Shown here: in pieces, positions 1 through 36,652 of the stretch | How positions within the stretch are numbered: position 1 is the stretch's first letter | How the letters are laid out: the number at the start of each line of letters is the position of its first letter | UHGV virus genome: UHGV-1550212 | DNA: 64,000 nucleotides | Source of the DNA: a virus | Reading direction: 5' to 3' (one strand) | The notes under the pieces: model-generated | What the model saw: only the letters and a program-made list of their open reading frames with translations | The model's database searches: none | Told to the model about the DNA's origin: nothing | Position numbers and translations under genes: made by a program

Positions 1-98
1 TTTCTTGTTTGTACAGCCATAGTATGAAATTGTTTGAAGTTTGTCTGTTATTTGTATTGCAGACAAGCTCGAACAATTTCATCATTCAAGTATGTCTG

Positions 99-506
99 CT
101 ATTTGTAGAAAGCGCGATTAATTAACACCCAACGAGTTGTGTTGCCTGCAATAAGAATTGCATATGACATTGCGCCAGTTGCATTTGCTGATACATCTGA
201 GTAGCCTGCTGCATAGTACAATGGCCCATTATTAAATGCAAATGTTGTTGTCGCATTGCAAACTGTTGCATTGCCTACTCGATTAATAACACATGATTCG
301 CCATATGTTAAGTTTGACAATGCGCATGTTATTGCTGACGATGTCGTTATATTATGCACTGTGTTTGCGACTGCATTAAATGACGCAGATTCAAGCGTCG
401 CATTCGCCATCAACGCACTATCAATGAGGTCGCCAAATTGTGCCGAGGTGGGTTTATCTCCGGTTTCAAAATACGTTTTGAGTACCGAACGTGTTTGAAC
501 TGCCAT
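99..506 (-). CDS. small tail-fibre-like protein (135 aa)
   Basis: ATG ORF. The N-terminal LKTYFETGDKPTSAQFGDLIDS motif resembles conserved phage tail-fibre N-termini (recognised from memory, not searched). It lies at the end of the fibre block. Confidence 0.6.
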   Translation of the reverse strand: MAVQTRSVLKTYFETGDKPTSAQFGDLIDSALMANATLESASFNAVANTVHNITTSSAITCALSNLTYGESCVINRVGNATVCNATTTFAFNNGPLYYAAGYSDVSANATGAMSYAILIAGNTTRWVLINRAFYK

Positions 507-610
507 ATGTTTCGATGTTTTAAGTTATGCAATGTGACATGAAAGCAACACTGCAAACTTTCCATCGAATGCAATGTCGCCTACGTTATAACAAGAGATT
601 GAGCCAGATA

Positions 611-629
611 TGTGACCCCCCCCCCAGTT
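611..629. repeat. left arm of inverted repeat: TGTGA-C10-AGTT
   Basis: The C10 homopolymer at 616-625 and its flanks are the reverse complement of 920-936. Confidence 0.85.
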
Positions 630-726
630 CAATTTGAATGTCATAAAGCTTATGAGTTTTTCAAAAATTAAATTGTTTGTTTTATATATTTTGACTGCTC
701 ATATGTACATATCAAAACTCAAAAGA

Positions 727-876
727 TTTGCATCTTGCATCAAAACTCAAAAGTTTTGCATTTTGCATCAAAACAACATCTTAGTTGTTTTGCATCTTGC
801 ATCAAAACAACATCTTAGTTGTTTTGCATCTTGCATCAAAACAACATCTTAGTTGTTTTGCATCTTGCATCAAAAA
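727..876 (+). repeat. tandem array with five copies of the core (G)TTTTGCAT(C/T)TTGCATCAAAAC, including 2.6 copies of a 34-bp unit
   Basis: Cores lie at 727-746, 754-774, 787-808, 821-842 and 855-875. The 34-bp unit GTTTTGCATCTTGCATCAAAACAACATCTTAGTT occurs at 787-820 and 821-854. Confidence 0.9.
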
Positions 877-904
877 CTCAACTCACTTCAAAAACTCAAT
901 TCAT

Positions 905-1261
905 ATGCAAATCCCTCGTAACTGGGGGGGGGCACAACAAGCCCTCCAACAAAGAAAGCTGTTAAAGCAGTTCACCGTACATATTTATACTCGGTACACT
1001 ATACCAATTAGACTGACATTTCTTGATAGAGAATTGCCACAAGAAGTTGGTCCTATTAAAACAGTGACGCCAATGTTGTATGATAATAGTACAGCTATCA
1101 CAATTTACAAAGGCACGCAAGTGTTCTATGATTTGTACTATGATGAAGTTAAGTTTGCTACGCATATCATAGCAACACAAGGCAACACAAACTATGGTGA
1201 AATTGAATTTGACGCTGATGATATCAAAGCATCAGAATATGCAATATACATTGGTATTTGA
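905..1261 (+). CDS. hypothetical small protein (118 aa; alternative start 1073)
   Basis: Only plausible plus-strand ORF here. ATG 905 lies about 30 nt after the last promoter-like repeat copy, and the bidirectional terminator 1333-1364 follows. A G9 tract occupies codons 7-9. The 785-904 part of the tracked ORF is translated tandem repeat. Confidence 0.45.
   Translation: MQIPRNWGGAQQALQQRKLLKQFTVHIYTRYTIPIRLTFLDRELPQEVGPIKTVTPMLYDNSTAITIYKGTQVFYDLYYDEVKFATHIIATQGNTNYGEIEFDADDIKASEYAIYIGI
920..936. repeat. right arm of inverted repeat: AACT-G9-CACA
   Basis: The G9 homopolymer at 924-932 lies inside codons 7-9 of ORF 905-1261. Confidence 0.85.
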
Positions 1262-1332
1262 TAAGTAAATTTGTAAACATTTCAGACTATATTACACTTA
1301 GACTGTATCAATTAAGCGCGTCACAGTGCACA

Positions 1333-1364
1333 AAAAAGACTCAGCAATATTGCTGAGTCTTTTT
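1333..1364. terminator. bidirectional rho-independent terminator
   Basis: Perfect palindrome AAAAAGACTCAGCAAT|ATTGCTGAGTCTTTTT between convergent genes (stops at 1261 and 1381). Confidence 0.85.
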
Positions 1365-1380
1365 ATGCATTTGCAGTTCA

Positions 1381-2136
1381 TTACAGCATATTCCAGTTTG
1401 TCATGTCATACATGTTGAAGTTGAACGCTGATGTAATATGTTCAAGAGCAGTCAAGATGTCATTACCAACTACTGGGTCATTTGCAATAAGCAAAATACA
1501 GTCAGTGACAGACGTATCGACCATGTTGCCTGCTTGAAAATCATTGAGCATTAGCCATTCAGCAAAGCAGTTGTCATAGTACGCAGGCTTGCCTGCAAAC
1601 ACTTTATCATCTCCAAATGATTCAAATGGGTGCGACAATGTCGATGCAAGCAGTTGAATGTCTTCATCTGTGCAATGAGATTCAATTCCCTCAAGCACAA
1701 TTGCTACACGCCACTCATTTGTCTCTGAATCGCCTCTATGAATTTCGTGAATCCAGGGTAAGCATGCAAGTGTATCACCACATGTCAAATTGACATTATC
1801 AAGTGTCTCACCTTGACCTGCGTAGCAATATAAAGTGGAGCCAGTGCCATAACGTAGACAGTCATTTACACTGACATTATCAAGATACACTGAACAAATT
1901 GACAATGCACCTGCACCAAGCCTGTTTGCGGGAATTGTCAACTTATATGTTGGCACGCCATTTGGCTGCACTGTGATAGGTGAGCCTGCTAAGAATTCAC
2001 CAGTGTCAGCATCATAGCATTCGACTTCTTGCATAGTCGCATATGCAGCTTCAAGCAGTGAACCATCTGCTTTATTGATAGCGCCGCTGATAATAGTGTC
2101 ACGAAGAGCCCCCCGCGATTGACTGCTGGCGTTCAA
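1381..2136 (-). CDS. hypothetical virion-module protein (251 aa from TTG 2136; probable 5' extension to ATG 2158 across a G6 tract)
   Basis: Long ORF. The tracked start codon is TTG. An ATG at 2158 in another frame stops after 19 codons, just past the G6 tract (plus-strand C6 at 2109-2114). Confidence 0.7.
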   Translation of the reverse strand: MNASSQSRGALRDTIISGAINKADGSLLEAAYATMQEVECYDADTGEFLAGSPITVQPNGVPTYKLTIPANRLGAGALSICSVYLDNVSVNDCLRYGTGSTLYCYAGQGETLDNVNLTCGDTLACLPWIHEIHRGDSETNEWRVAIVLEGIESHCTDEDIQLLASTLSHPFESFGDDKVFAGKPAYYDNCFAEWLMLNDFQAGNMVDTSVTDCILLIANDPVVGNDILTALEHITSAFNFNMYDMTNWNML

Positions 2137-2227
2137 ACCAGAGTTGAGTAGTTTTCATAAGCGAAAAGACTTTTGTATGTGAAATTTATTGACATATTAT
2201 ATATCATGCTGCACTACGCACAAAAAG

Positions 2228-2256
2228 AAGAGCATCGGTTGATAACCGATGCTCTT
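2228..2256 (-). terminator. rho-independent terminator after the BACON genes
   Basis: 13-bp stem AAGAGCATCGGTT/AACCGATGCTCTT with a 3-nt loop, followed by a U-run in the minus sense. Confidence 0.8.
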
Positions 2257-2304
2257 TCAAGTTCTGCTGTAAACTGTTCAATAGTGTAATCTCGTTGTAC
2301 TCGA

Positions 2305-2919
2305 TTACGATACAGTCCACGGGCAGTTTGCAGTAACCGTAACCGTAACTGCAGGAGTACCGGCCTGAGGAATCTTGATTTCCTGCTTGTCGAGCACCAG
2401 CGTCGGGTCACCAGCAGCCTGAACGATTGCAATCTGAGCAGTCTGGGCACCGTTGGCAGTTACCAAAATCGATGTCGTACGCTCATCAATCGTCAAGTTG
2501 GCGGGAATGTCAAGCTCAATGCTGAACGCAAACTCAGCGCTAGCACCAGGGTCACCAGTGATTGCCACACCGTTGTTGGTTTCTACACCAGCAACCGCGT
2601 ACTTTTCAGGCAGTTCGATAACGAACTCGCCGCCCTCAACGACGCTGAACGTCAGCTTCAATGAGTTAGATACACCGGTTACGGTAAGAGTACCGCCAGC
2701 CTTAGGAGCTGACATCTCTGAACCGTTGTCAAATGACACGAATTCAGCCTTTGCAGTCTGCTGCACATTGTACGTCGAAGGCGTCGAAATACCGGCACCC
2801 TGAACGGTTACGACACCAGTACGTGCAATACGACCAGTGTGGGCGTCAGCAGAGTTGGAAATTGAACCATTACCCGAACCAGATGTCGGGCTAAGTTTCA
2901 ACCATGCGGGTTTAGCCAT
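2305..2919 (-). CDS. BACON-domain protein (204 aa)
   Basis: The N-terminus MAKPAWLKLSPTSGSGNGSISNSADAHTGRIARTGVVTVQ matches the BACON pattern (W-L-x-S-P, G-x-G-N, N-x-G-x-x-R-x-G). It is paralogous to the next two genes. Confidence 0.8.
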   Translation of the reverse strand: MAKPAWLKLSPTSGSGNGSISNSADAHTGRIARTGVVTVQGAGISTPSTYNVQQTAKAEFVSFDNGSEMSAPKAGGTLTVTGVSNSLKLTFSVVEGGEFVIELPEKYAVAGVETNNGVAITGDPGASAEFAFSIELDIPANLTIDERTTSILVTANGAQTAQIAIVQAAGDPTLVLDKQEIKIPQAGTPAVTVTVTANCPWTVS

Positions 2920-2975
2920 TGTTCAAAATTGTTATAAAGTGAGTGTATATGTGTACAAAATTCGATGATTGCTCA

Positions 2976-3575
2976 TCAAAGAATTTTCCAAGAAGCATTT
3001 GATGTCAAGTTCATTGTGATTGTTGTGCCGTCATCATCGACTGTCACAGACTCTGTGCTCAATACAAGAGTTGCTGCCGCAGCTGCTTGAGTAATACTAA
3101 CATTCAATGACTTGCCACCAGGTGTCGTCACTGTCAATACAAATGATTTCTGTTCAATTGTCAAATTTTGCGGTATTGTAACTTCAATTGACCAAGCAAA
3201 CTTTGCAATATATCCAGGGTCATTTGCAATTGCTGTGTCATTTGTTGCAGCGGCGCCATTTGCTGTGTACGCAGTCGGAATGCTAAGATTCGGATTTGTA
3301 GTTGCAAACTTAAGTTTTGCTGCGTTAGACTCACCAGAAACGACAATTTTTGTGGCAGCAGCAATCACATTATATGATGCTGTGCCTGACACAAATTCTG
3401 CAAGAGCAGCTTGGTTAATCGTCGTTTGCTTTGTAACTGTAGGTGTAGTCTTCGTTTGCACAGTCGCAATTGTGCTACGAATGCCTCTACCTGTATGAGC
3501 TCCTGCAGTAAATGCCAGGATATCATTGCCTTCACCAGACATTGGTGAACACTGCGCCCATATAGCTTTTGCCAT
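2976..3575 (-). CDS. BACON-domain protein (199 aa)
   Basis: The N-terminus MAKAIWAQCSPMSGEGNDILAFTAGAHTGRGIRSTIATVQ is BACON-like. It is a paralogue of 2305-2919. Confidence 0.8.
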   Translation of the reverse strand: MAKAIWAQCSPMSGEGNDILAFTAGAHTGRGIRSTIATVQTKTTPTVTKQTTINQAALAEFVSGTASYNVIAAATKIVVSGESNAAKLKFATTNPNLSIPTAYTANGAAATNDTAIANDPGYIAKFAWSIEVTIPQNLTIEQKSFVLTVTTPGGKSLNVSITQAAAAATLVLSTESVTVDDDGTTITMNLTSNASWKIL

Positions 3576-3646
3576 TGTTACTGTGCAATTTTTAATTGTT
3601 TGACATGATATTTATATGCATTGCTTAAGCAATGTTGAATTGACAT

Positions 3647-6600
3647 TTATCGAACAAGGAATGACGTACCAACAACCATATTCGGGATTGCCAAGCCATT
3701 GCCAGACTGGCTTACTGCAACTGTGCCACTTGTGTAACCTGACAATGCTGCAGTAATTGTTGCCGACCTGCTGTTATCTGAACCCCAGTTATTTGCAGCG
3801 GACAATGTCGAACCTCTGATTGTGAATGCGCCATTGTTCGATGAGTACGTTGGAGTAACCGCAGCATCTGATGTTGTAGACTGACCTGTCGTGTACTTTG
3901 TGACAGTTCGACCTGTCGTAGACAATGTTGCAGTGCCACCAGCAGCCCCAAAGCTTGTAACAGTTGAGCTGACAATCAGAGTCTTCGTAGTCGAAGTCAC
4001 ACTGTTGGCTTCCTGTGTAGCAGTGATTGCTTTTGAGCCAGTTTGACCATTCAACGCAACCGTCATATTGACTGTAGCGGTTCTTGCAGAACCAGCAGTT
4101 GTGCCACGATTTGCAGCAGTCAATGAACCGGTTGTACTACTGTTAAGCGTAAAGCCAGTAGTTGTAGCCATACTGTATGAAATTGTACCGCCAGATGTAA
4201 TAGTAGTTTTTGAACCACTTGTGTACGTTGCTGTCTGCGAGTATGCTGGCGTGCCTGTTGGAGTCTTTGTTGCACCTGCTGCAGCAAATGTTGCATATGA
4301 TGTTGCTGTAGTAACTGTGACTGCACTGTATGATACACTGTTAGTTGCTTGATAGACATCAAGTGCTTTTGTAGCAGTCTTAGACCCTTCACCAGTAGCA
4401 GTTGCAGTCAAAGTGCCAATCTTTGTACGAGCTTTAACTGTAGTGCCAAGCGATGATGCGCTGACTTTTGTGCTATACGCAATGCTAACTGAGCCTGCCC
4501 TTGTGCTGCCAGACGTATATGTAATTGTCTGTGATGCACTGATGCCAGACATTGATGCGACTTCACCACCGCCAGCAGGAATATCTGATACAGAACCACC
4601 AGAGATTGTTACTGCGCCATATGTCGTAATTGCATTTGCAGCTTGGTACACATCGACTGCTTTTGTTCCAGATTTGCCATTGACTGTTACAGTAACAGTA
4701 GATGTTGTAATCTTTGTGCGGGCTTTAGCAGTAGTGCCAAGTGAACTACCAGACACTGCGCCAGTAGACGTTGTTACACCAGTACCAGACCATGATTTGC
4801 TGCCGCCAGACGTAACTGTCTGTGTTGAGCCACTTGACCACGTAACTGATTGACTGAATGACACCGTAGGCGTAACTGAGCCGCCTTTTGCAGGAATATC
4901 ACCATAAGTCATCGAAACTGTTGGCATGCCATATGTAGCAGCATTAGCATTTTGAGATGCAGTAGCAGTCTTTGTTCCACTGATAGTCTTTGTGCCTGCT
5001 GCGTTGTATGATGCAGTTGGCGTCCATGTAGCCTTTACAGTCTTTGTGACTGTTGGCGATGTTGTTGCACCACTTGCAGTAGTGCCTTTTGATGATGCGG
5101 TTATAGCACCAGTAGATGCATTGAGTGCAGTGAACAATCCTGATGCGCCTGGCCAGCTATATGATGTTGTAGTTGACAATGAACCATACGTAGATGCTGG
5201 CGCAGTAGTTGAAGTACTGCCACTACTAAAGTGGTATGTTACTGTGTTTGCACCATTTGACGGTGTAGATGTTCCGCCACCTGCAGCAATTGCAGGATAT
5301 GACATCGAACCAACTGCAATATTGAGTGCAGTCACATAGTTGCCTGCCTGATAAATCGTTGCAGACTTGCTGGCAGATTTGCCATTCATTGTGACTTTAA
5401 CAGTCAGTGTACCTGCAGTAGTCTGGTTAGATATTGTAGTGCCCTTTGATTGCACAGTGACTGTCGATGTGTACTCAATTGTTCCGCCGCTTGTCAGTGT
5501 TTCTGTCGTCTTTTCACCAGTAGCATATGTCGTAGTTTTGACTTGCGAATAAGTTACTGTACCAGATTTTACAGAACCGCCGCTTGCTGCAATGATAGTT
5601 GCAGACGGTGTCAAGTTAACTGTGATATCGCTATATGTAACTGTGCCAGCAGATTGAGCTGCTTGATAAACATCTGCAGCTTTTGATGCAGACTTACCGT
5701 TGAGTGCTACTGTGACAGTTAATGTGCCAATCTTTGTTCGTGGCTTAACTGATGTGCCAAGTGATGATGCAGATATACCTGCTGCTGGGCTATATGAAAT
5801 TGTGCCACCAGTAGTAATGTTCTGAGTTGATGTTGATGTGTATGTAGCAGTCTGCGAATATGACACATTGCCACTCTTAATTGTACCACCAGTTGCAGGA
5901 ATATCTGCTACAGTGAAGCTTGAAATTGTAACTGCGCCATATGACACAGTGTTTGCAGCTTGCTTGACTGTGCAAGAACCAGTTTTTGTAACACCGCCCT
6001 CAGTGTATGAGCCAGAAATTGTAATGCTGCGTTCTGCGCCTACGACTGTTGTGCGATTTGCTGCAGTTACTGTAGTAGTCGACAATGTAAAGCCAGTTGC
6101 TGAACCGCTAAGTGTTGCAGATACTGCAGCAGATGACGTTGAGCCTGATGCATATGTGTATGACGCTGTTGAAGTGATTGTAGTTGAACCGCCACCAGCT
6201 GCCAATGTTGCAGCGCCAGGTGTCAATGTCAAGCCATTCAGCGTCTTTGAGTTTGCAGTTTGTGTTGCAGTAGCAGTTTTTGTAGCAGACTTGCCATTGA
6301 TTGCTACCGTAACTGTGACAGCATTTGAAGCATCAGTAGAGCCTACATATGATGTGCCCATTGACGTTACAGTCAATGCGCCACTTGTCGTATTCAATGT
6401 CCAGCGTGACTTAGCAGTCATTGCATAAGACAATGTAGCACCACTTGTCAATGTGCCACCTGAGCCAGCTACGCCATTCCAAGTCCAGACTTGTGAATAT
6501 GAAACAGTTGGGTTTGATGTACCACCAGCAGGAGCAATGTTTGAATATGAGAACGTTCCAATGACAGGCGTTTCATAGACTTTAGCGCCTGCAGCTTGGT

Positions 6601-7975
6601 TAAACGTGATGTCTTTTGATGCAGACTTACCATTTGCGGTGACTGTCAAGGTAACAACAAATCCATTACGTGCAGCAGTAGAATTGTTGTTTGTCACTGC
6701 GACATTCAAGCCAGATAAGCTATAGCCTGTTACAGCAGTTTTGACCGCAGCAGTCCATGTGCCACCTGATGTGTTGCTGTCAGTTGAACCGCTGCTGTAT
6801 GTCATTGACTGCGTAAATGTTGCAGATGCATTGGCTGCAACAGTTTGACCTGCTACTGCAAGAGCAACTGGTGTTGTCTTTGTAATGACTGGCGTGCCAT
6901 ATGTAATGCTGTTAGCAGCTTGTGTAATCGATACAGTAGCAGTTGCATTGCCATATGACGCTGTGCCACTAAATGACCGAGCATCACCGACAGTCTTGCC
7001 ACGATTTGCAGATGTTACAGAATTTGCAGATATCGTAAATCCTGTTGCAGTGCCAGTAATTGTAGGCTTGACATTTGTTTCAGTAGATGTAACAACACCA
7101 TTCCATGTTACAGTGTAAGTGCCTGTGATTGTTGATGTTCCACCTGCTGCAGTATGACTTGTTGAATATGCGTTCAGAGCAAGTTTGTATACGACTGAGC
7201 CTGCTGCTTGTGAACATTTAACAGTCTTCGATAAGTCATGACCACTTACAGTCAGTGTTGGTGTAACTGCTGCAGTTGATGCATTGTTCGGTGTATTGAC
7301 AGTGATTGTTACAGGGCCTGTGCCAGATGCTTTTGAGACTGACCAACCTGCAGGTACGCCTGAAATTGTCCATGCAAAGTCAGGGTTACAAGAAATTGCG
7401 AATGTTTTCGATTCACCCTTTGCAACAAATGACAGAGTTTCTGGTGATACTGCCAATGTTGCACTTGCACCAGCTTGATTTACAGTAAATGCTGCAGACT
7501 CGCCACCAGGCGTTGACAATGTAAAAGTGAACGCCTTTGCAGCGATTGCAGTATGTGCATCAATCTGCACTCGTACAATCACTTCAAATTCAGCATTGAC
7601 ACCAGGGTCATTGTCAAAGTTTGTGTTGAGCTCGTAGTTTTTGCCTGCAACAGTCACGCCAAGCACTGTGCCGCTTGCAGTACCACCAGTACTGCCAAGC
7701 ACAAGTTTTTGTGCATTTGTGACGCATTTCAATGTTGCAATAGTGCCACCATTTGACGCAATGTTTGTAGATGCAACTGTAGCTCGTATAGTTTCACCAG
7801 GAGACTCTTGCAATACTGCACAGTTTTCAGTTACTACTGGTGAACCTGTAGTTGTTTGCGCAGTAAAGCTGCCAGACCTGTTATTTCGACCAGTATGCAC
7901 AGATGCTTTGACAGACAACTGTGAGTTGCCTGTGCCAACATCAGGTGTAACTGTCAACCAAGTAGGCTTTGCCAT
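3647..7975 (-). CDS. giant BACON/Ig-like tandem-repeat surface protein (1442 aa)
   Basis: N-terminal BACON domain (MAKPTWLTVTPDVGTGNSQLSVKASVHTGRNNRSGSFTAQ), followed by more than 10 repeats of about 95 aa with the recurring pattern ...GGT..YSQ..TYTSGS...SLGT..K.RTKIGTLTVT...NGKSA.K...VYQA.N. Confidence 0.85.
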   Translation of the reverse strand: MAKPTWLTVTPDVGTGNSQLSVKASVHTGRNNRSGSFTAQTTTGSPVVTENCAVLQESPGETIRATVASTNIASNGGTIATLKCVTNAQKLVLGSTGGTASGTVLGVTVAGKNYELNTNFDNDPGVNAEFEVIVRVQIDAHTAIAAKAFTFTLSTPGGESAAFTVNQAGASATLAVSPETLSFVAKGESKTFAISCNPDFAWTISGVPAGWSVSKASGTGPVTITVNTPNNASTAAVTPTLTVSGHDLSKTVKCSQAAGSVVYKLALNAYSTSHTAAGGTSTITGTYTVTWNGVVTSTETNVKPTITGTATGFTISANSVTSANRGKTVGDARSFSGTASYGNATATVSITQAANSITYGTPVITKTTPVALAVAGQTVAANASATFTQSMTYSSGSTDSNTSGGTWTAAVKTAVTGYSLSGLNVAVTNNNSTAARNGFVVTLTVTANGKSASKDITFNQAAGAKVYETPVIGTFSYSNIAPAGGTSNPTVSYSQVWTWNGVAGSGGTLTSGATLSYAMTAKSRWTLNTTSGALTVTSMGTSYVGSTDASNAVTVTVAINGKSATKTATATQTANSKTLNGLTLTPGAATLAAGGGSTTITSTASYTYASGSTSSAAVSATLSGSATGFTLSTTTVTAANRTTVVGAERSITISGSYTEGGVTKTGSCTVKQAANTVSYGAVTISSFTVADIPATGGTIKSGNVSYSQTATYTSTSTQNITTGGTISYSPAAGISASSLGTSVKPRTKIGTLTVTVALNGKSASKAADVYQAAQSAGTVTYSDITVNLTPSATIIAASGGSVKSGTVTYSQVKTTTYATGEKTTETLTSGGTIEYTSTVTVQSKGTTISNQTTAGTLTVKVTMNGKSASKSATIYQAGNYVTALNIAVGSMSYPAIAAGGGTSTPSNGANTVTYHFSSGSTSTTAPASTYGSLSTTTSYSWPGASGLFTALNASTGAITASSKGTTASGATTSPTVTKTVKATWTPTASYNAAGTKTISGTKTATASQNANAATYGMPTVSMTYGDIPAKGGSVTPTVSFSQSVTWSSGSTQTVTSGGSKSWSGTGVTTSTGAVSGSSLGTTAKARTKITTSTVTVTVNGKSGTKAVDVYQAANAITTYGAVTISGGSVSDIPAGGGEVASMSGISASQTITYTSGSTRAGSVSIAYSTKVSASSLGTTVKARTKIGTLTATATGEGSKTATKALDVYQATNSVSYSAVTVTTATSYATFAAAGATKTPTGTPAYSQTATYTSGSKTTITSGGTISYSMATTTGFTLNSSTTGSLTAANRGTTAGSARTATVNMTVALNGQTGSKAITATQEANSVTSTTKTLIVSSTVTSFGAAGGTATLSTTGRTVTKYTTGQSTTSDAAVTPTYSSNNGAFTIRGSTLSAANNWGSDNSRSATITAALSGYTSGTVAVSQSGNGLAIPNMVVGTSFLVR

Positions 7976-8030
7976 TTTATGTCGTTTTGTTATTTTCTGT
8001 GATATTTACACACACAATGTAACTTGCATT

Positions 8031-9959
8031 TTATCGAACATGCCAAAGAGTGTTCGACTTCACATTGACAGAGCTCTTAAAGTTATTATGACTGCACAGC
8101 CAAACATGCGACTTGTCAAGTTCTGCATAAGCATCTGACTTTAAGAATGCTTCAGAAGATTTGCTTGTCTGTTGCTTTGTCATTGACGCATCACCTACAA
8201 GCATTGCAGTCGAACCTTTATACACTTGTTGCGCATCATCTGCAATTAACGTAGCTTCAAATGGCTGTTGTTGCATAAGCAATGCAAGCGTAGACCGACA
8301 TGAATCTTTGTCTACTCTTATATGTGTAATTTTGCCGGCAAAACCATACAGCTGAACAATGTCTGAGTCATTTGACCAGTCATGCAAAATTGATGTAGAC
8401 TTAACAACTTCTGTCAAGATTTGCATGTCATTGACTGTGGTCGATGTTGACAAACTCAGTACAAGTTCAACGTCACCATTGTTAAGATTGCGTTGTCTAA
8501 TGACTACGCCGTTCCAGCTCTTGCAAATCTTATCATCTACGCTTGCTAAGCTTTCGCCAGTTTTGACATCAAGCACATGTAACAAGCCAGATGACACTGC
8601 AAGCATCAATCTGCCAAGTCGCATCAGTTGCCATGATGCTGCTTGAGCTTTTGCATTGTCTTCAAGCATAAACAAGCAACATGCAGACCAATCTGACGTA
8701 TCAAGTGATTTGACATACTCAACTGCAATGTCATTGCCAACTGCATTCATATCATAATATGCAGCAGACACTGGCACATATTTGAACGACAGCGGTGATT
8801 CATTTACACTGACTGCTTTATGAATGAATCTACGATTATTTTCGTACATGCTCAAGTCGACATGCATGTCATTAACAAACATATTGAGAGCAATGTCTTC
8901 GACTTGTTCAGTTGCAACTTTGTCTGCATCAAAAGTATCAAATGTTTTTGTGAGCTCGTCCAAATTAAGTATCTCTTTCACATCATCAGCAACTTGCATT
9001 TTAGACTCGTCACGGTATTCAGGTCGGTGCTCATATGACTTCAATGTCAGCTCATAATATGGCGTTGATAACATAATGCCATCTGGATGTTGCACAGATG
9101 CAACTTCAAGCATTCGATTTGCTATTGGTACATAGCAATAGTCAAATTGCTGTGGCTGCTTGCCAATGCCAAACACTCGTTCGTATTCTGCTTTTGGCAC
9201 ATGAGCCGTTATACCTTGTTCAAAGTCAATGTCAAATGCGTCATATGTGACTTTGTTCGTGCTAAATTCATTGTCAACAACCATCAGCTTCAGCCACTTA
9301 ACTGCACCAGTATGAATCAAGTCATATGCACGTAATGATGCAACACGATGTTCATCTGACACTTCATGACTAAACCAGATAACAACATGACCAAGCTGAC
9401 GATTCACAGCATTTACAATGTTATCTTGCAATACTATAGCATCTTGCATGTGCGTGTATGGATTGTACAGATGATTGTCTGATTCAATGACAATTGATGC
9501 TTGTTTTGCTGGTGCAAGAATCTCATCAGCGTATGTGACATTGTCAACAGATTCTTCGTTGACTTTGATATCTTCGAGTACGTATGAGTCATGACGAACG
9601 TTTGCTGCATCTGTCCATTGCTTGCGCCATGCAACATCAACAATCATAATGAACTTGACATGTACAGGCTCATCTGCAGTTGCATATGCAAGTACAAACT
9701 CATTCAAATGTGTCGCAGCGTCATACACAGAACCAGGCTCAGACCATGTCTTGCCTGCATCTACAGACCATTTGAATTGCACATTGAGCATTGCATAACA
9801 TTGCTCAGCGTTATCAACAAGCTCAATGTTATTCAATGAGCCTTTGATATCTACAGCAAATTCAAGATACAGTGTAGAATCTTGTCTTACGATGATGCAA
9901 TCGTCATCAGCCCTTTGTGACACTGACTGCTTTGTTGATTCGTTTGATGACTTTGCCAT
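8031..9959 (-). CDS. hypothetical tail/baseplate protein (642 aa)
   Basis: Long ATG ORF in the structural block. It overlaps the upstream gene by 53 nt. Confidence 0.75.
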   Translation of the reverse strand: MAKSSNESTKQSVSQRADDDCIIVRQDSTLYLEFAVDIKGSLNNIELVDNAEQCYAMLNVQFKWSVDAGKTWSEPGSVYDAATHLNEFVLAYATADEPVHVKFIMIVDVAWRKQWTDAANVRHDSYVLEDIKVNEESVDNVTYADEILAPAKQASIVIESDNHLYNPYTHMQDAIVLQDNIVNAVNRQLGHVVIWFSHEVSDEHRVASLRAYDLIHTGAVKWLKLMVVDNEFSTNKVTYDAFDIDFEQGITAHVPKAEYERVFGIGKQPQQFDYCYVPIANRMLEVASVQHPDGIMLSTPYYELTLKSYEHRPEYRDESKMQVADDVKEILNLDELTKTFDTFDADKVATEQVEDIALNMFVNDMHVDLSMYENNRRFIHKAVSVNESPLSFKYVPVSAAYYDMNAVGNDIAVEYVKSLDTSDWSACCLFMLEDNAKAQAASWQLMRLGRLMLAVSSGLLHVLDVKTGESLASVDDKICKSWNGVVIRQRNLNNGDVELVLSLSTSTTVNDMQILTEVVKSTSILHDWSNDSDIVQLYGFAGKITHIRVDKDSCRSTLALLMQQQPFEATLIADDAQQVYKGSTAMLVGDASMTKQQTSKSSEAFLKSDAYAELDKSHVWLCSHNNFKSSVNVKSNTLWHVR

Positions 9960-11457
9960 TGCGAGGATTTATGATTGCAAGTTCAATATCATAGTCGCCG
10001 ATATGACGAAAATGATGTCTAAAAAGATATTTGTCAGATGTAGCTTCAATGACACCACCAGATATTGCATTACGATATGCGCATGTCCATTTGATGTCAT
10101 GCGGAGCATAAGCATATGACAGCTCATCTGGGAAGCAGCACACTTGACTCCCAACTGTCACAGTTGCGCCATTGTCAATCTTGCAGAACCTTGTGTCATT
10201 TGGTCTACGTTGCACTGCATAGTGATGCTGACATTCAAACATGTCTGATTTGATTAACAGAGTTTGCCAAGGCGATTCAATGAGATATCGAGGCTTTTGA
10301 GACTCTTCACTTACAAGTTTACAATGCAGTCCAAGATTTTCAAGCTCTTCAACAAGTTGAGTATTTGCAATGTGTTGGGTGTAGTGTTTGTCATTTGTGT
10401 GTATTTCCACATCATGCTCAGTAGTGTCAACGACATCTGCAATAATTGTCGCAGGCCAGTTGCCAGTCAGCTCAAAATCATCAAATGCAAAATGCAAGTC
10501 GGTGTTAACATGCAATTGTGCTCTGCTCATAGGCTCTTTGCTGTACGCATACAATGCCCATTGCATTGAATTGTCAAGCATCTGAATTTCTTGCACAGAC
10601 CATGTAAACTTTGCAAATTGTGAATCTGCATGCAATTCACAGTAGTCATTGATTTGCTTAAGCAAGTCTTTAACATCTGCGTATGCAATGTTGACTTCAT
10701 CTGCATCAACTTGAATGCCATTGACATCGACAAACTCAGACATCGACATTGCAAATGTGTCAGCATCTTCAATATCAATTTGCATGTTCAGATATGTTGA
10801 GCCGTACTGCAACAATCGCATGCAATCAGAATCAACAAGTTTGATGTCATTCAAATGGTCAAGCCATAGAACATTTGATTGCGCCTTGTCAAGATTGTAG
10901 AGCCATTTTATGATTGAGTCGTCTTTTTTGACATTTTCTGGGTCAAACACATTTGGGTCTGGGTAGCTCATGAAATCTGGCACACCCAATGCTTTTCGTG
11001 TGCTATAGTACAATGTAGCATTGTTCATGCCTGCAATGTCAATTGACTCATCAGGCTCTTGAAGCTTTGCAGCAATTTGAGACAACGAATTGCCTGCATA
11101 TATCTGCTCAAGTGAATGTCGTTTGTTGTCTGCAATAGCAATGACAAAGTTTGCTTGCAATTCTACGATGTTCAGTGTGCGTTTGAATGCTTGTACTTGA
11201 CCATAACAATCTTTGATAGTCAACACAAGTTCATACACACCTGCAGTTGTTATGCCAAGCTTAAGATGCTGTTGAACATCAAGATACGTTCTGTCAAACA
11301 CAAGCTTGCCAGAATCATCATAGATTTCATACGTAGCTTCTCTACAATTTTGTATGAGCGCAGATAAGTCTGCGTCTTTTGATGACCATGCTGCAATTGA
11401 AATGTCTATAATTGCTACATTGTCTCTGTAAAAAAGCCCTATAGGTTGTGGATTCAT
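9907..11457 (-). CDS. hypothetical tail/baseplate protein with PKD/Ig-like segments (516 aa)
   Basis: Long ATG ORF. Beta-rich segments at both ends (YEIYDDSGKLVFDRTY..., ...GDYDIELAIINPRNGKV) look PKD-like by eye only. Confidence 0.7.
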   Translation of the reverse strand: MNPQPIGLFYRDNVAIIDISIAAWSSKDADLSALIQNCREATYEIYDDSGKLVFDRTYLDVQQHLKLGITTAGVYELVLTIKDCYGQVQAFKRTLNIVELQANFVIAIADNKRHSLEQIYAGNSLSQIAAKLQEPDESIDIAGMNNATLYYSTRKALGVPDFMSYPDPNVFDPENVKKDDSIIKWLYNLDKAQSNVLWLDHLNDIKLVDSDCMRLLQYGSTYLNMQIDIEDADTFAMSMSEFVDVNGIQVDADEVNIAYADVKDLLKQINDYCELHADSQFAKFTWSVQEIQMLDNSMQWALYAYSKEPMSRAQLHVNTDLHFAFDDFELTGNWPATIIADVVDTTEHDVEIHTNDKHYTQHIANTQLVEELENLGLHCKLVSEESQKPRYLIESPWQTLLIKSDMFECQHHYAVQRRPNDTRFCKIDNGATVTVGSQVCCFPDELSYAYAPHDIKWTCAYRNAISGGVIEATSDKYLFRHHFRHIGDYDIELAIINPRNGKVIKRINKAVSVTKG

Positions 11458-11468
11458 TGTATTGCAGT

Positions 11469-11918
11469 CTATTGATGATTGTTGTTATCGCACTTATTGA
11501 GCAACTGGTCATAATACGTTTGCTCTGTCTTACGTTGCTGCTCTATCAAAATAATAATTTGTTCCATTTGAATTTCAAATGCAGCGTTTTTGCGAACAAG
11601 TGCTTTATGTTGCTCAGTAGTTAATGCTGCGTCAAGAATATCCAACATATCTGCATGATATGCAGCAATAATTTTGTTGTATTGCTGCATAGCAGTTTGC
11701 AAAGACTCAAATGACTGGTCAGATAGTGTTGACAAAATTTGAACATGCATTTTGTCTGTCAAGCCAATTTTTGCTTGCAGCAAATCACGTTCTGCCGAAT
11801 GCTTTCTGTCAATGTTGATGATAAACATCATCAAAATCATCAATACAAAAGCTATAACAGTCTTGTAGTTCTTGTCATCAATGAATCGCAGCAAAAATAT
11901 GTCTAAAAACTTTTCCAT
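11469..11918 (-). CDS. hypothetical membrane-anchored coiled-coil protein (149 aa)
   Basis: ATG ORF with an N-terminal hydrophobic helix (VIAFVLMILMMFIINI) and a helical remainder. Confidence 0.6.
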   Translation of the reverse strand: MEKFLDIFLLRFIDDKNYKTVIAFVLMILMMFIINIDRKHSAERDLLQAKIGLTDKMHVQILSTLSDQSFESLQTAMQQYNKIIAAYHADMLDILDAALTTEQHKALVRKNAAFEIQMEQIIILIEQQRKTEQTYYDQLLNKCDNNNHQ

Positions 11919-11935
11919 TGCTTATTCTGCATTGT

Positions 11936-13261
11936 TCATTCTGCGATTTCCCAGATTCGTGTTCGTTTATTTGCTATGCTTCGTACTACAGCACTGTCAC
12001 CTATGCGAACATCCCATGCTCGATTTGATGTCAATGTGATGTTCTTTGTGCCACCAGGCTGCTCAAATGATAAGTTTGCTTTGTCAAGTTCAAGCAATGG
12101 GGCCAAGTCCATGCTTTGGTCAATAAGCCAGTCAAAGTACTCAGCGTCAATTTGCGATGTATCAATGTCTGCTTCTGTGACTACAAAAATGTCATTAAGC
12201 TTGTTTGGTCTAACAGTGTCACCAATTGGCTCAAATGCAGTGCTTGGCAGAAGCATTGTATGTGGACGAATGTAAATGATGTCTTCATCTACAAATGCAT
12301 TCATATCTTTAACTATAATTTGCGCTGCTGGCGTGTATGGTTTTGATGTTACAATTTCTGCATTGTCTGAGCCATACAAATATCGAGCCATGTATGATGC
12401 AAAAACATCAATGCTGACATCTGCAAAATGAATGTGCTCTGGCAAAAAGACGTCTTCAAGAATCATGACAAGATACTGCAGCTTCAGCAACAAATCTTGA
12501 TTGTCTGCCATGTTCTTGACAAATTCAGGCATGCCACAATTCAGATATTTGCCAGACGCTTCATTGTATTCATAGGTCAATTGCAGCAAATTTGTGCGTT
12601 TGTACATGCCTGCGTATGGCGAAATGTCATCTTGCAATGGCAGCAATGTTCTGTTGTTGCCATCAAGTGATTTGAGCACTTCATAGATGCGAACAGCTTC
12701 ACTGTAGCCAAGCCAGTCTAATGCAGCATGCAACCCATTGTATGTGCCAAGCTTGCTGTCAATATCATCTCGTCGTATAAGCCACTCTCTTGCTTTGCTA
12801 TTCTGCAATATGAAGTCAACGACATCTTGTCGAATGTCATTCAGCATCAATGCTTTGTTGTAGTACTCAAGATAGTCATGACCCATATTAGACATCATGA
12901 CAAGCAAACGTTCATCAGCATCAACTACTGTAGCAGTCACATTGATATGCAATGCAATGTCATCAACGACAACTTCAATTGCACAAACGTTGTTGCCAAC
13001 ATCGACAGCATTGAATATGATGTTTGCAGTCATGTCGTCATTGACAAGATGCCGAGTAGTCTTATCTACAAGCAGCAATTCATTATTCTCATTAACTGCA
13101 AAGAAACTCAATGCAGACGATAGCAATCTAACTGTGCATTCAACATTGTCTGAAAACAATGATGCAATGTTATATGTGCCCTTTGACACATTGCCAAGCT
13201 CTATGTTAGCGCCGTCATAGATGCGCTTGCCGAATCTGTCAAAAATGTTTATTGCAGCCAT
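11936..13261 (-). CDS. hypothetical baseplate-module protein (441 aa)
   Basis: Long ORF. The tracked start at 13285 is TTG, so ATG 13261 (MAAINIFDRF...) is preferred. It lies downstream of the J-like gene. Confidence 0.7.
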   Translation of the reverse strand: MAAINIFDRFGKRIYDGANIELGNVSKGTYNIASLFSDNVECTVRLLSSALSFFAVNENNELLLVDKTTRHLVNDDMTANIIFNAVDVGNNVCAIEVVVDDIALHINVTATVVDADERLLVMMSNMGHDYLEYYNKALMLNDIRQDVVDFILQNSKAREWLIRRDDIDSKLGTYNGLHAALDWLGYSEAVRIYEVLKSLDGNNRTLLPLQDDISPYAGMYKRTNLLQLTYEYNEASGKYLNCGMPEFVKNMADNQDLLLKLQYLVMILEDVFLPEHIHFADVSIDVFASYMARYLYGSDNAEIVTSKPYTPAAQIIVKDMNAFVDEDIIYIRPHTMLLPSTAFEPIGDTVRPNKLNDIFVVTEADIDTSQIDAEYFDWLIDQSMDLAPLLELDKANLSFEQPGGTKNITLTSNRAWDVRIGDSAVVRSIANKRTRIWEIAE

Positions 13262-13281
13262 GTTACAGTTTCTTATCAATG

Positions 13282-13512
13282 TCAAAGTTTCTTGTCAATA
13301 TCAAAATATGACGTAAAGCGATTCACAAATTCAACAAACAAAATCGATAGTGCGTCACACATGCCAATGAGAGTTGACACGCCAAAATACGCTGCAACTC
13401 TTGTGCTCTTATTGAACACTACTCTACTATACACACCACTCTGCCATGATGGCTTTGCAGTGACAAGCATTGATTGCTTGATTTTGTCTCTTGTAGTGAA
13501 ATTCGATTGCAT
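13282..13512 (-). CDS. hypothetical small protein (76 aa)
   Basis: ATG ORF that exactly fills the gap between two structural genes. Confidence 0.4.
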   Translation of the reverse strand: MQSNFTTRDKIKQSMLVTAKPSWQSGVYSRVVFNKSTRVAAYFGVSTLIGMCDALSILFVEFVNRFTSYFDIDKKL

Positions 13513-18065: not shown

Positions 18066-18962
18066 TTACAATGTTCCGCAAAGCAATTCACGTAAATCCA
18101 TGCCAGCTTGTGTACTATACTGAGCAATAAGATTACGTTCTGAATCAGACATGCTCCAATAAATCTTATGCTGAGCTCTACGAATAATAGTATGAATGCC
18201 AGATGTGCTACAATTGAACTTCTTTGCAAGTTCTGCATGAGTTAACAAATCCGCATCGCCAAGGCCATACACATGTGTGAGTACAAGCTTTTCATTTTGA
18301 GTGAGTTGTTCAAATGCTCTTTGCAGAATCTTTGTGTTGCGTTTGTGAGCATCCTCGATTTCAAGAACTTCTTGGCCTGTTTTGAAGTCTGACCTCAAAT
18401 CATTCTGAACTGGTGACCATGCATCACCATCTTTATCAAGTGTAGTGTCATCCTTACTGGTGAATTGTTTGCCTTCAAGAGCTCTTTCATATGCTCCACG
18501 AATACCAGTAGATAATTGTTGACTTGTCAGATTGAGTTCGTCAAGCACATATTTCTTAATCCAAGGATATGCATATGTGCTAAACTTTGCTTCACGAACT
18601 CCTGCAGGCAATACGCCTTCTACGTAATTCTTGGCTGCTATTGACAATCCAAGATTGCCTGCTTGAATGACGTCATCCAATGGAACCGAGCGTTTGCCAG
18701 ATGCGAACCATAAGCTTCGTGCAACTGATATGACCAATCTTAAACAAGATTTGATAAGAGCTTCACGATTTTCTTGAGTCTTCTTGAATCGAGTAACATC
18801 ACAATATCGCTTTGCAGTAGCCAGCGATTTGACTTCTTCAGGAGTAAGCTCATTCTCCATCCTCATTTGCTTGAGCTCCTCCTTTGTGTATAGACGTTCT
18901 CTTGTGATTCTACCTACGTCCTTTACGTAGCCTTGATTGATTTGTGAATTTGAACCTGCCAT
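18066..18962 (-). CDS. sigma-70-family RNA polymerase sigma factor (298 aa)
   Basis: Region 2 is LDDVIQAGNLGLSIAAKNY...FSTYAYPWIKKYV (compare DLIQEGNIGLMKAV...FSTYATWWIRQAI). The region-4 HTH is LTHAELAKKFNCSTSGIHTIIRRAQHKI. Its own terminator lies at 18013-18047. Confidence 0.85.
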   Translation of the reverse strand: MAGSNSQINQGYVKDVGRITRERLYTKEELKQMRMENELTPEEVKSLATAKRYCDVTRFKKTQENREALIKSCLRLVISVARSLWFASGKRSVPLDDVIQAGNLGLSIAAKNYVEGVLPAGVREAKFSTYAYPWIKKYVLDELNLTSQQLSTGIRGAYERALEGKQFTSKDDTTLDKDGDAWSPVQNDLRSDFKTGQEVLEIEDAHKRNTKILQRAFEQLTQNEKLVLTHVYGLGDADLLTHAELAKKFNCSTSGIHTIIRRAQHKIYWSMSDSERNLIAQYSTQAGMDLRELLCGTL

Positions 18963-22956: not shown

Positions 22957-25900
22957 TTATCGTACGATGAATGGCTTGTTAGAGTCTTCAATAATCATTG
23001 AGCCGATGCCATGCAGCTCTTGAGTAACCTCGACAGATACATCTTGTGCAGTGTTGTATGAGCACTTGAATGCTGCAACTCGACTAAATGCGTCAATGTC
23101 TGAATAACTGAGTTCATCAACTTGTATTGAGATTTCACCAATTGCTGGCGCAGTCTTTGATGGTGTAATTGTGATGTCATGCAGCCAGCCCGGATTGCCA
23201 ACAATGACTGCAGTCAATGATTCACCATCAATTGGATTGACAACTTCATAATTGAAGCTCAAAGTCTTTGATGAGTCATCAGTTGTTGCTGACGCAGGCG
23301 TAATGTTGATTGTTGTTACGCCTTTCGCAGCCTGAACAATTTGTGCAGTAACATCTTGAGCATTGATGTGAGAGAACTTAACTGAGCAGCTACGTTGTTC
23401 TGTCGTTAAGTTGCGGTCACATTCAATAGTCAAGTAGCCTTTGCCTGTGTTATCATCATATTCGAAATTTGTGTCAGTGAATACGCCAGCTCCATTAAGA
23501 ACTTCATATGACAACTGCTGACCTGCAATTGGATTGCCAACAGTGACCTCAAAGACTGCTTGAGTATCTGTTGACTTCAATTGAGCAATAATCGGCTCAA
23601 CAGTTATTGTCGACACGCCTTGAGCTGCTTGTGTAATGTTGACTGTTACGTTGTCAGCAGTCATATATGACAGTCTCAAGTATAAGTTACGAGTAGCTGT
23701 TGCAGTGTTGATGTCAAGCGCAAATTGTATTGTGCCAGCTGACATATTTACTACAGGTTCGCCAACAAAGCCAGAGCCCTCTGCAGCAACTGTCAGTGTT
23801 TCGTCTTCAATAGGATTGGTGATGCTAAAGTTAACTGTAAACGAACCACCATTAGCTGCTGCGTTGATTGTCAGCGGTTCAGCATTGATGACTGTAGCTT
23901 CTTTAGCAGCCTGAGCAAGCGATACTGCTACATTGTCTGCAGTTGGATATTGTAGTACAATGTTTGCTGTACGAGTGCTTGTTTGCAATGTCTTGTCATA
24001 ATCAAATGTAATCTTGCCATCAGCAACTTGAACATTGTGAATCCAGCTTTTTGTTGCATATGCAGTGACTGCAGCACCAGCATAGCCATTACGAATTTGA
24101 TATGTAATTTCAGATGAACCGCCAGCAGCATTAAGTGACATAGAACTTGTGACAATGATTTCAGGCCTTGTTGATGCACTTGTGCTGTATTGAACTACAG
24201 ATGCAATTACACGAGGCTCAAATATGACAGCATTTGCAGAGCCGCCAAATGTCGGTGTTGCAATCACATAGATTGGCCAAACTCCACTTGATGCGACATT
24301 GCGTAAGATTGCTCGATAGTGCAGTTCATTGCATGCATCTTGCAATTCACTCCATGTTTTTGCAGTGTCAATTGTTGTCAAGCATGCAGGCAACACCGCA
24401 CATGTTGATGGCTTATCGGCGTCAATAGGTGTTGCATTGCCACTTGCTATTGGTTTGTAGCTCAAGTCGACTTTGACTGATGCATAACCATTGCCATACA
24501 CAATGAATGGCACAGTGATATCAAGCAAAATATCGACAGTTGCAGGCATGTTCAGATATGCTGGCAGCGGTACAAGCGTTTGCATTGCAGTAGCACCTGG
24601 CACATTGTCATCGAATGATTCAACATACACAGGTGGCGTCAAATCATCTTTGTGAGCATATTCTGCATGAGTGTGGTCTGAATGTGACACTGTGCTTGCA
24701 TAACCAGACCCAGCAAAGTCTTTATTGAATGCAGACTTCTTTGCTTCTTCAGTCAATCTGCCAGAGCCATCATATGCCAGCACAGTATTTGATGCGCCGA
24801 CACCTGCTGCAAGATGATTTGAGCCATCAATGAAGACATGTTTATATTGACGTTCAAACAAATGAGCATCAAAATTGTCAAATATCGAATTGAACAGCTT
24901 TTTGACTGCGGATGCTGTAGGCAGATGCTTGTTTGCATTTGCGCCATCAATGATGATACTTGCCCAATTGTCTGAGCTCTTGAAGATGCCAAGAAGCATA
25001 TCGATGACTTTGCCAGTAGCGTCTGTGCCAAGAACACTTGCACCAGGCAGTTTCATCAATTGTAAGTCGACTGTTGCAGCAAGTTTAAGCAACTGCTTTG
25101 TCAATGTCAGAATGTCTGTGACAACTCCAGCATCTGACAATGCTGCAATGCGATATGACTGATTGATGAGTTGCGCAAACTTATATGCACGAATGAATGA
25201 CTCTCGCTTTGCTTCTGCATCCAAGCCTTTTGCCAAGAACAACTCATCATATTTCAGATTTGCATATGACAATATGTCAAGCTCATTGACTGCAGATGTA
25301 AAATGATTGCGAAGTCTAATGCCCTCATATGATTGCCACAATGCAGCCAAATCAGCAAATGACTTGACATGTGAATCATCTGATGCAAAGCCAAACACAA
25401 GACCGCTGTTAAAGTCGTTTTGCAACAGCATATGTGGAAAAGCATCAATGCCTGGCAACTGATTCTTTTTGTCTGCATCAAGACGATTCAGTGTTCGTTG
25501 TGTGAGGTCGTAATAGTAATATGGATTGCCCAATATCTGCACAACTGGCTTTGCTGCTTTGTTGTTTGCATTGCCAAGACCATCAATTTGTGTATCACTC
25601 GGTGCAAGCAGAATAACTGAGCTGTCAACGTTATTGTATCGAGGCACACTTTCAAGCCCTATTGACAATGCGCCTGTATGCTTGTTTGAGTAGCTGTTGT
25701 CGATTTCTGCACCAGGCTGGCCATCTGCTGCAATGTTGAACATTGCTGCGTATGACTTGATTGTACCGCCGTACTTTGTTTTGATGAGCTCTTCAATGAT
25801 TTGCGTAATGATGACATTCAAGTTATCATTGTCACTTGTCAGCAATTGCAAGCCCGTAAATTGCCACCATTGCGCATCATCTGATGACGCGTCATACCAG

Positions 25901-36585: not shown

Positions 36586-36615
36586 TGTGCATGAATGTTC
36601 AATATGTAAATTCAC

Positions 36616-36629
36616 TATATGTACATATA
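36616..36629. promoter_or_regulatory. perfect palindrome TATATGTACATATA, a candidate bidirectional late promoter between terL and HE paralogue 2
   Basis: It lies 24 nt upstream of terL ATG 36653 and 31 nt upstream of HE ATG 36585. The same core precedes many structural genes. Confidence 0.45.
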
Positions 36630-36652
36630 ACACGAATATTCAAGTTAGATGC

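Follow-up and report, generated by a model that had tools for sequence, protein, structure and literature searches.

The closest described relatives of the locus studied here, a block of four genes in a 64,000-nucleotide stretch of the virus genome UHGV-1550212 (the window, meaning the whole stretch of DNA that was analysed), are the BACON proteins of human-gut Bacteroidota phages. These proteins belong to the same family as those of the window, occur in crAss-like and unassigned myovirus-like phages and are, as here, encoded beside tail or head structural genes. They include the crAss-BACON open reading frames (ORFs) of de Jonge et al. 2019, where bacterial BACON is said to act as a linker and is not counted as a proven binder of glycans (PMC6949934), and gut-phage BACON/immunoglobulin-like (Ig-like) proteins displayed on phage K1F, some of which increased epithelial adherence (Apjok et al. 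2026, PMC13370021). Both reports describe 'single-BACON' ORFs of about 200 amino acids (aa), and count Pfam matches per ORF as whole domains; in the parts covered, neither mentions a half-domain whose other half lies at the end of a neighbouring gene. For the window, we consider it probable (roughly 60%) that the 642-aa product of the gene at 8031-9959 and the products of the three consecutive genes that follow it, ORF3, ORF2 and ORF1, are parts of a surface fibre joined non-covalently by split BACON domains.

In the proposed assembly, the beta-sandwich of the BACON domain would be interrupted in the loop that links strands three and four. Its first half, the socket (…L.V.P…V.V.SN..W.V. directly before the stop), would form the C-terminus of one protein and its second half, the plug (MAKP.WL..P.SG.GN…HTGR..R…V.Q), the N-terminus of another; docking of the plug into the socket would yield one complete BACON domain from two chains. 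The 642-aa protein, probably a gp14-like neck protein and with a socket only, would be the anchor, ORF1 and ORF2, with a plug and a socket each, would be extenders, and ORF3, with a plug only, would be the terminator, consisting of a shaft of 11 Ig-like repeats and a conserved tail motif. Together the chains would make up a surface fibre on a myovirus of Bacteroidota, with no covalent links between them. Complementation of the halves between chains, tentatively the chain order, and the location of the fibre at the neck are inferred; by analogy with other BACON proteins, the fibre may help the phage adhere to the surface of host cells or of mucosa.

Fibres and pili of related design are known. 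The long tail fibre of T4 (gp34-gp37) and the fibritin whiskers on its gp13/gp14 neck are multi-protein fibres, chaperone-usher pili use donor-strand complementation, and type V pili of Bacteroidia use strand exchange. Like the proposed fibre, the T4 fibres consist of several gene products joined end to end non-covalently, but they are trimeric beta-helical or coiled-coil rods with dedicated junction domains, whereas here an Ig-like string with a split-domain junction is proposed from sequence. In contrast to both kinds of pili, about half a domain (three strands) rather than a single strand would be donated, the partners would be different proteins encoded in a fixed cassette, and the sequences are unrelated. 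PHROG and Pfam scans of the neighbouring genes turned up no chaperone, usher or activating protease, although no search was aimed at them. T4 Hoc, according to the 'adherence to mucus' model (cited in PMC13370021), also exposes tandem Ig-like modules with a proposed weak adhesion on the virion, but its one chain attaches to the capsid by the C-terminal domain, and it has neither a split domain nor a multi-gene cassette. Ig-like and BACON phage fibres as such are known; what would be new is the split-domain connector, which is reminiscent of donor-strand complementation. We found no phage BACON or Ig-like domain described as split or complemented in the literature covered, and no annotation that mentions the split; this is not proof of absence, as subscription journals lay outside this coverage.

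The four genes are arranged as follows.

8031-9959, minus strand: anchor candidate, 642 aa, directly upstream of ORF3, probably a T4 gp14-type neck protein.
3647-7975, minus strand: ORF3, 1442 aa.
2976-3575, minus strand: ORF2, 199 aa, candidate extender module with plug head (3411-3575), Ig-like middle and socket tail (2979-3077).
2305-2919, minus strand: ORF1, 204 aa, candidate extender module with plug head (2755-2919), Ig-like middle and socket tail (2308-2412).

An earlier note, made from the sequence of the window alone, had placed three consecutive genes at 2305-7975 and described a common start, MAK(P/A).W....P..G.GN.......AHTGR..R.G. Both are borne out, the start as MAK(P/A).W....P..G.GN.......HTGR..R, with small departures in ORF3 (VHTGR) and ORF2 (R..RST). 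ORF3 residues 1-205 align end to end with ORF1 (blastp, E 7e-17) and ORF2 (E 3e-23), and ORF1 and ORF2 are 36% identical (E 6e-34). A hidden Markov model (HMM) of the module head matched ORF2 (E 2.5e-23) and ORF3 (E 8.6e-14), a module tail HMM matched ORF2 (E 1.6e-15), and all three window heads are of the same type. PHROG scans of ORF1 to ORF3 returned nothing informative, and a PDB sequence search with the module profile found no homologue.

The common start had also been taken for a whole BACON domain. Assignment to the family stands for ORF1, which matches Pfam PF13004 (BACON, 61 positions) with 37.6 bits and so exceeds the curated gathering cutoff (25 bits); ORF3 stays below this cutoff with 20.2 bits and ORF2 gives no match, the N-termini of all three being clearly homologous nonetheless. 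That the start is a complete domain had to be given up: against PF19190 ('Viral BACON', 94 positions), the shared N-termini cover positions 42-92 only (19.5-21.7 bits) and thus correspond to the C-terminal half. The first half is located at the extreme C-termini of ORF1 (…LVLDKQEIKIPQAGTPAVTVTVTANCPWTVS, then stop), ORF2 (…LVLSTESVTVDDDGTTITMNLTSNASWKIL, then stop) and the 642-aa protein (…HVWLCSHNNFKSSVNVKSNTLWHVR, then stop). When C-terminal tails were placed before heads and the concatenated sequences were scored against PF19190, the following values were obtained.

ORF1 head alone: 21.7 bits, positions 42-92.
Reversed tail plus ORF1 head: 20.4 bits, positions 39-92.
Unrelated tail plus ORF1 head: 24.1 bits, positions 34-92.
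ORF3 tail plus ORF1 head: 20.4 bits, positions 39-92.
True tails plus heads: 29.5-38.1 bits, positions 4-12 up to 91-92.
Natural fusion junction (P0243): 34.9 bits, positions 2-91.

A near full-length BACON match above the Pfam cutoff was therefore restored by true tail and head, not by reversed or unrelated tails. Individually, the ORF1 tail before the ORF1 head matched positions 12-92 with 33.6 bits and the ORF2 tail before the ORF1 head positions 7-92 with 29.5 bits; the tail of the 642-aa protein before the ORF3 head reached 25.9 bits. The register across the cut is constant as well, the two tryptophans being spaced by 3 + 5 = 8 residues in every tail/head pair of the window and by 7-8 residues in intact junctions. 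In profile comparisons with hhalign, anchor tails and module tails were homologous (probability 88%, P 3e-6), and the head-versus-tail controls were negative. A tail followed by a head, with the cut in the W…W loop, is found at the window junctions between the 642-aa protein and ORF3 and between ORF2 and ORF1, and ORF1 again ends in a tail. In total, the window holds three sockets and three plugs.

The unsplit version of the junction appears to occur in ORF3 itself, which we divide into these parts.

7811-7975, minus strand: plug head, residues 1-55, BACON second half (PF13004, 20.2 bits; head HMM).
7475-7810, minus strand: middle Ig-like domain, residues 56-167 (blastp homology to the middle domains of ORF1 and ORF2; all-beta sandwich in the AlphaFold2 (AF2) model).
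7208-7474, minus strand: intact BACON-like domain, residues 168-256, apparently the unsplit version of the junction.
3707-7207, minus strand: shaft, residues 257-1423, with 11 Ig-like repeats, each about 100 aa long (repeat HMM).
3650-3706, minus strand: C-terminal tail SGNGLAIPNMVVGTSFLVR before the stop, 19 residues (1424-1442), with the motif G.G.M.[IV]G[ST].F.V[RF].

Residues 170-205 of ORF3 align to the tails of ORF1 and ORF2, after which the second half continues in the same chain (blastp). Here the junction reads AWTIS-GVPAG-WSVSKASGTG, where ORF1 instead stops at WTVS and the next protein opens with MAKPAWL. In the AF2 model, residues 168-256 form a confident beta-sandwich (predicted local distance difference test, pLDDT, 88-96) with fully formed first-half strands; searched alone against Pfam, this segment gave no BACON match and only weak matches to fn3_6 and PKD_6. 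The ORF3 head has four strands in the model (E7-10, 21-24, 33-40 and 49-56), and the C-terminus of ORF3 is without a BACON first half.

Intact junctions are also found between modules in nature. Four proteins (P0243, P0271, P0281 and P0296) are module-module fusions with one intact BACON domain between the modules, a fifth (P0280) has an anchor-like domain fused to a module via an intact BACON domain, and P0244 comprises four modules with an ORF3-type tail at its end.

The same cut recurs far beyond the window. The ORF1 family has 456 close homologues, which are 201-205 aa long in all of the 120 matches listed, and a profile search of 1.8 billion representatives, with the BACON halves included in the profile, gave 5072 matches. 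Among 86 cassettes, drawn from other assemblies and about 80 viral contigs of IMG/VR, 84 combine a first-half tail on the gene directly upstream of the module (63-113 aa) with a second-half-like head on the gene directly downstream. These cassettes sit on unrelated backbones: one with a P22-type portal (L002), one with an SPP1-type portal (L006), the crAss-like cr127_1 and the window myovirus. The cassette most often seen in small phages has its three genes behind a tail-fibre/host-specificity gene. In 67 of 83 cassettes (L010-L088), the TAA stop of the module shares one base with the ATG that follows (TAATG). The gaps between anchor and module in the L010-L088 cassettes cluster at 34-37 nt.

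It could be argued that ORF1 to ORF3 are simply three independent BACON/Ig-like adhesins and that their terminal halves are degenerate or truncated domains without a role in assembly. The PF13004 match of ORF1, which looks complete (positions 9-60 of 61), and the deposited homologues, named simply BACON, lipocalin-like, GH5 or cellulase, would agree with this. An identical loop cut in nearly all cassettes on unrelated backbones, the constant module length, the conserved register and the existence of intact fusions are, however, hard to reconcile with decay, and half of a beta-sandwich of the Ig-like type is not expected to be stable alone. We regard independent adhesins as improbable.

Circular permutation would accept the halves and pair them differently: ORF1 and ORF2 would each close their own plug and socket into a permuted BACON domain, and only the 642-aa protein and ORF3 would pair between chains. 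Several observations that count against a fibre of four docked chains fit this self-closure. The AF2 monomer model of ORF1 is compact and confident throughout, including the tail (pLDDT 95.8; predicted template modelling score, pTM, 0.82), BFVD monomer models of relatives superpose over their full length (template modelling, TM, score 0.86), and csAssE-Sib carries a lone module without a neighbouring anchor or distal gene. In addition, the gene of the 642-aa protein adjoins ORF3, and the numbers of halves balance under self-closure too. On the other hand, in several ORF3 relatives (P0151, P0154 and P0169-P0174) plug head and socket tail are 7-11 repeats apart, so that closure within one chain is implausible for them. 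The natural fusions link the tail of one module to the head of the next and not both ends of one module, the common cassette has a head-like gene after the module tail with a 1-nt overlap, and the ORF1 tail has 6 strand residues in the monomer model as against 21 in the equivalent segment of the intact ORF3 domain. On balance, we think it unlikely that ORF1 and ORF2 close on themselves. Given socket-only anchors, plug-only ORF3 and distal proteins, and relatives with distant plug and socket, some pairing between chains is unavoidable if the halves fold at all.

Further points tell against the docked fibre. The heads of the distal proteins resemble module heads weakly (hhalign 43%, P 2.5e-4) and are not recognised by Pfam, and the anchor's own match to PF11649 (T4_neck-protein) scores 16.4 bits, below the cutoff of 25. 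The suggested role in adhesion derives from reports on BACON proteins other than these; searched for in the supplements of PMC13370021 as a link between the adhesins tested there and the 202-aa family, the N-terminal peptides of the modules had no match. Finally, a 449-aa protein (11936-13285) contains an internal first-half-like segment, LSFEQPGGTKNITLTSNRAWDVR, which as a fourth socket would unbalance the 3:3 tally.

This segment lies at 12002-12100 (residues about 396-428) and is followed by about 21 residues; its matches are weak (E about 1e-3), and it is kept in the orthologue of L089 (6305-7837; blastp, 38.6% identity). Judged from the sequence, the 449-aa protein, encoded near baseplate genes, may carry a fourth socket.

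The short gaps between the genes (-1 to 71 nt) also invite the idea of a polyprotein, in which recoding by read-through, frameshifting or ribosomal bypassing would place each BACON domain in one chain. Precedents exist in gut phages, some of which recode TAG or TGA, and in T4, where 50 nt are bypassed in gene 60. The stops themselves speak against it: the module ends with TAA in 83 of 86 cassettes, and the window genes end with TAA, TAA, TGA-TGA and TAA. At 80 of 85 anchor-module and 75 of 83 module-distal junctions, the reading frame changes from one ORF to the next, and in-frame read-through meets further stops. Moreover, the ATG-GCN-AAR (MAK) start is conserved, and the remaining window, outside the gene block, holds intact long ORFs under the standard code. 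On the identity of the stop codons and the reading frames we rejected recoding, which we consider very improbable.

The unsplit state in ORF3 and in the natural fusions would likewise fit a recent fragmentation, or an assembly error, of one long multi-BACON gene. The same split is, however, present in the 98%-identical independent contig L001, in the approximately 35%-identical L089 and in hundreds of assemblies from different sources, and each piece has its own conserved start codon. Fragmentation or misassembly hence appears extremely improbable.

Whether split BACON halves constitute a general plug-and-socket assembly code of gut phages is, in our estimate, an even bet. If they do, docking partners would be determined by how the halves match, an anchor tail fitting a module head and a module tail a distal head; unrelated lineages (crAss-like, P22-portal and SPP1-portal phages and jumbo-like myoviruses) could build heteropolymeric Ig-like fibres of defined order from separate genes; modules could be swapped or added by recombination at gene boundaries; and the number of fibres on display would depend on whether a neck protein has one socket or three. 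The proposed docking would explain how very common, uncharacterised surface proteins of gut phages are mounted on the virion, and it would correct a systematic mis-annotation in which a half domain passes for a 'single BACON domain' and the proteins bear the names cellulase, GH5 or lipocalin-like. It also bears on the fibre assemblies of crassviruses, which cryo-electron microscopy leaves unresolved (review, PMC10136315). A naturally orthogonal split-Ig-domain connector could moreover serve the engineering of phage display of adhesins.

In public records, modules are annotated as 'lipocalin-like protein, BACON binding domain', 'glycosyl hydrolase family 5 protein / xyloglucanase' or 'Cellulase', for example at L093 3489-4145 (csAssE-Sib), at L092 3501-4136 (cr127_1) and among the BFVD matches. 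These proteins have about 200 aa and no catalytic domain. The enzyme names appear to have been transferred via BACON similarity to BoGH5A.

When an HMM was built solely on anchor tails from other phages, whose anchors have 63-113 aa, it matched one place among the 468 ORFs of the window, the C-terminal 35 residues of the 642-aa protein (E 1.1e-8).

8034-8138, minus strand: socket tail of the anchor candidate, last 35 residues SDAYAELDKSHVWLCSHNNFKSSVNVKSNTLWHVR before the stop, BACON first half.

This tail is kept in relatives of the protein with 34-66% identity. The 642-aa protein itself matched PHROG 679 'head closure Hc2' (E 5.9e-5), and 8 of 10 members of its family matched PF11649 (best E 8.7e-6); a PDB sequence search with the anchor profile gave no match. 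These similarities suggest that it is probably a neck protein of the T4 gp14 type, and it would thus resemble the protein around which the collar and whisker fibres of T4 sit. Three relatives (P0396-P0398; L091) have three socket motifs, two internal and one C-terminal (independent E-values 1e-6 to 1e-10), on contigs that stop right after the gene.

In L089 (153.7 kb, about 35% identical), the gene set of the window recurs in a different order: an anchor is followed in turn by a 209-aa module, a 2524-aa plug-only protein, a 206-aa module and a terminator. The tally is again three tails and three heads.

Relatives of ORF3 range from 1114 to 2524 aa, with 3-22 repeats. Some of them (P0132-P0138, P0144, P0175, P0213 and others) open with another N-terminal connector, MIIIGTNNIAAAYVGATAVEKAYVGNNQIYP, made of short I/V-G repeats and followed by an intact BACON domain, and small anchors of other phages also open with short I.V..G-type repeats. 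Fibre shafts seem to be joined to end pieces of several kinds.

For the ORF3 shaft, more than 10 repeats had been proposed, and we count 11, of 96-132 aa each, with the landmarks YSQ, SLGT..K.RTKIGTLT, NGKSA.K and VYQA. An HMM built from these repeats finds exactly 11 domains in ORF3 (independent E-values 1e-15 to 3e-33) and no match in any other of the 468 window ORFs. Their designation as Ig-like holds at the level of the fold and does not extend to a named family. The AF2 model of residues 1-470, which covers the first two of the 11 repeats and shows them as beta-sandwiches, is all-beta with 7-9 strands per approximately 100 aa (mean pLDDT 82.6), and Foldseek retrieved titin I-band (I65-I70), RTX-adhesin repeats, protocadherins and contactins (E 1e-12 to 1e-9); no Pfam Ig or Big family matches ORF3 (E up to 1).

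The earlier note had further suggested that the repeats may recombine to vary in length. Relatives with 3-22 copies and with perfect tandem block duplications of 203-574 aa agree with this, but the repeats of the present ORF3 are too diverged for ready recombination. Their pairwise identity has a median of 33% (maximum 60%, minimum 20%), the longest exact peptide repeat is 9 aa, and the region contains no tandem repeat at the DNA level, the best DNA pair being 107 nt at 74% identity. ORF3 has the same length in the 98%-identical relative. Since the repeats are old and diverged here and duplications occur in other relatives, recombination changes the copy number in the family at large rather than, at present, in this gene.

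The terminal motif G.G.M.[IV]G[ST].F.V[RF] closes ORF3 (GLAIPNMVVGTSFLVR), the 1112-aa tail fibre (GIGSMIIEDSNKPFIVR, 22960-23010) and many ORF3 relatives (GIGKMVIGSTFKVF, then stop), as well as P0244 and cr127_1 gp_26497 (GIGRLKIGTNFIIR). A looser form stands on small distal proteins (FILSDGSTFNVIK; for example, L092 4146-4862). In plug-only proteins, the motif always stands behind the final Ig-like or second-half domain, and it may be a further docking element.

The 1112-aa tail fibre (22957-26295) had been credited with four BACON-like repeats. Four repeats of approximately 95 aa do exist at residues 710-1092 (23020-24168), each ending in ..V.V.Q[AE]A; the BACON label rests on 16.4 bits, which is under the Pfam cutoff. 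Neither the ORF3-repeat HMM nor an HMM of the rejoined BACON domain detected them, and the repeats of ORF3 and of the tail fibre belong to different families.

The window phage is a large myovirus-like phage that encodes a baseplate wedge protein, a tape measure protein, a large terminase, a clamp loader, topoisomerase II, an NAD ligase and a sigma factor. A 175.6-kb IMG/VR contig is 98% identical to it at the protein level, and megablast of window positions 1-12000 against deposited phages gave no match. A Bacteroidota host, previously predicted from the BACON proteins, is supported independently of BACON by the large terminase, whose nearest relatives in cultured phages are those of the jumbo phages Chryseobacterium MA9V-1/2 (40-47% identity) and Tenacibaculum PTm1.

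Between the four genes of the block, no terminator-like sites were found, and one hairpin follows the last gene.

2228-2256, minus strand: terminator-like hairpin after ORF1, 13-bp stem plus T run, similar to an intrinsic terminator.

Co-expression of the four genes is therefore likely. No common promoter motif was found in the intergenic gaps, and a sigma-70-like scan stayed at background level. A candidate motif, TAAATATCA, was dropped, as it is present upstream of ORF3 and ORF2 only. The sigma factor gene (18066-18962, minus strand; PHROG 351, E 5e-25) lies amid structural genes, and its counterpart in L089 (514-1407) has a Sigma70_r4 domain; a phage-encoded sigma factor in this position suggests phage-specific late promoters. 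Elsewhere in the window, a homing-endonuclease-like ORF (35290-36633, minus strand; PHROG 3339, E 2.7e-7) overlaps the large terminase ORF (36425-38644, plus strand) head to head. The terminase match begins only at residue 84-138 or thereabouts, so that the true start of the terminase is probably downstream of the listed ATG.

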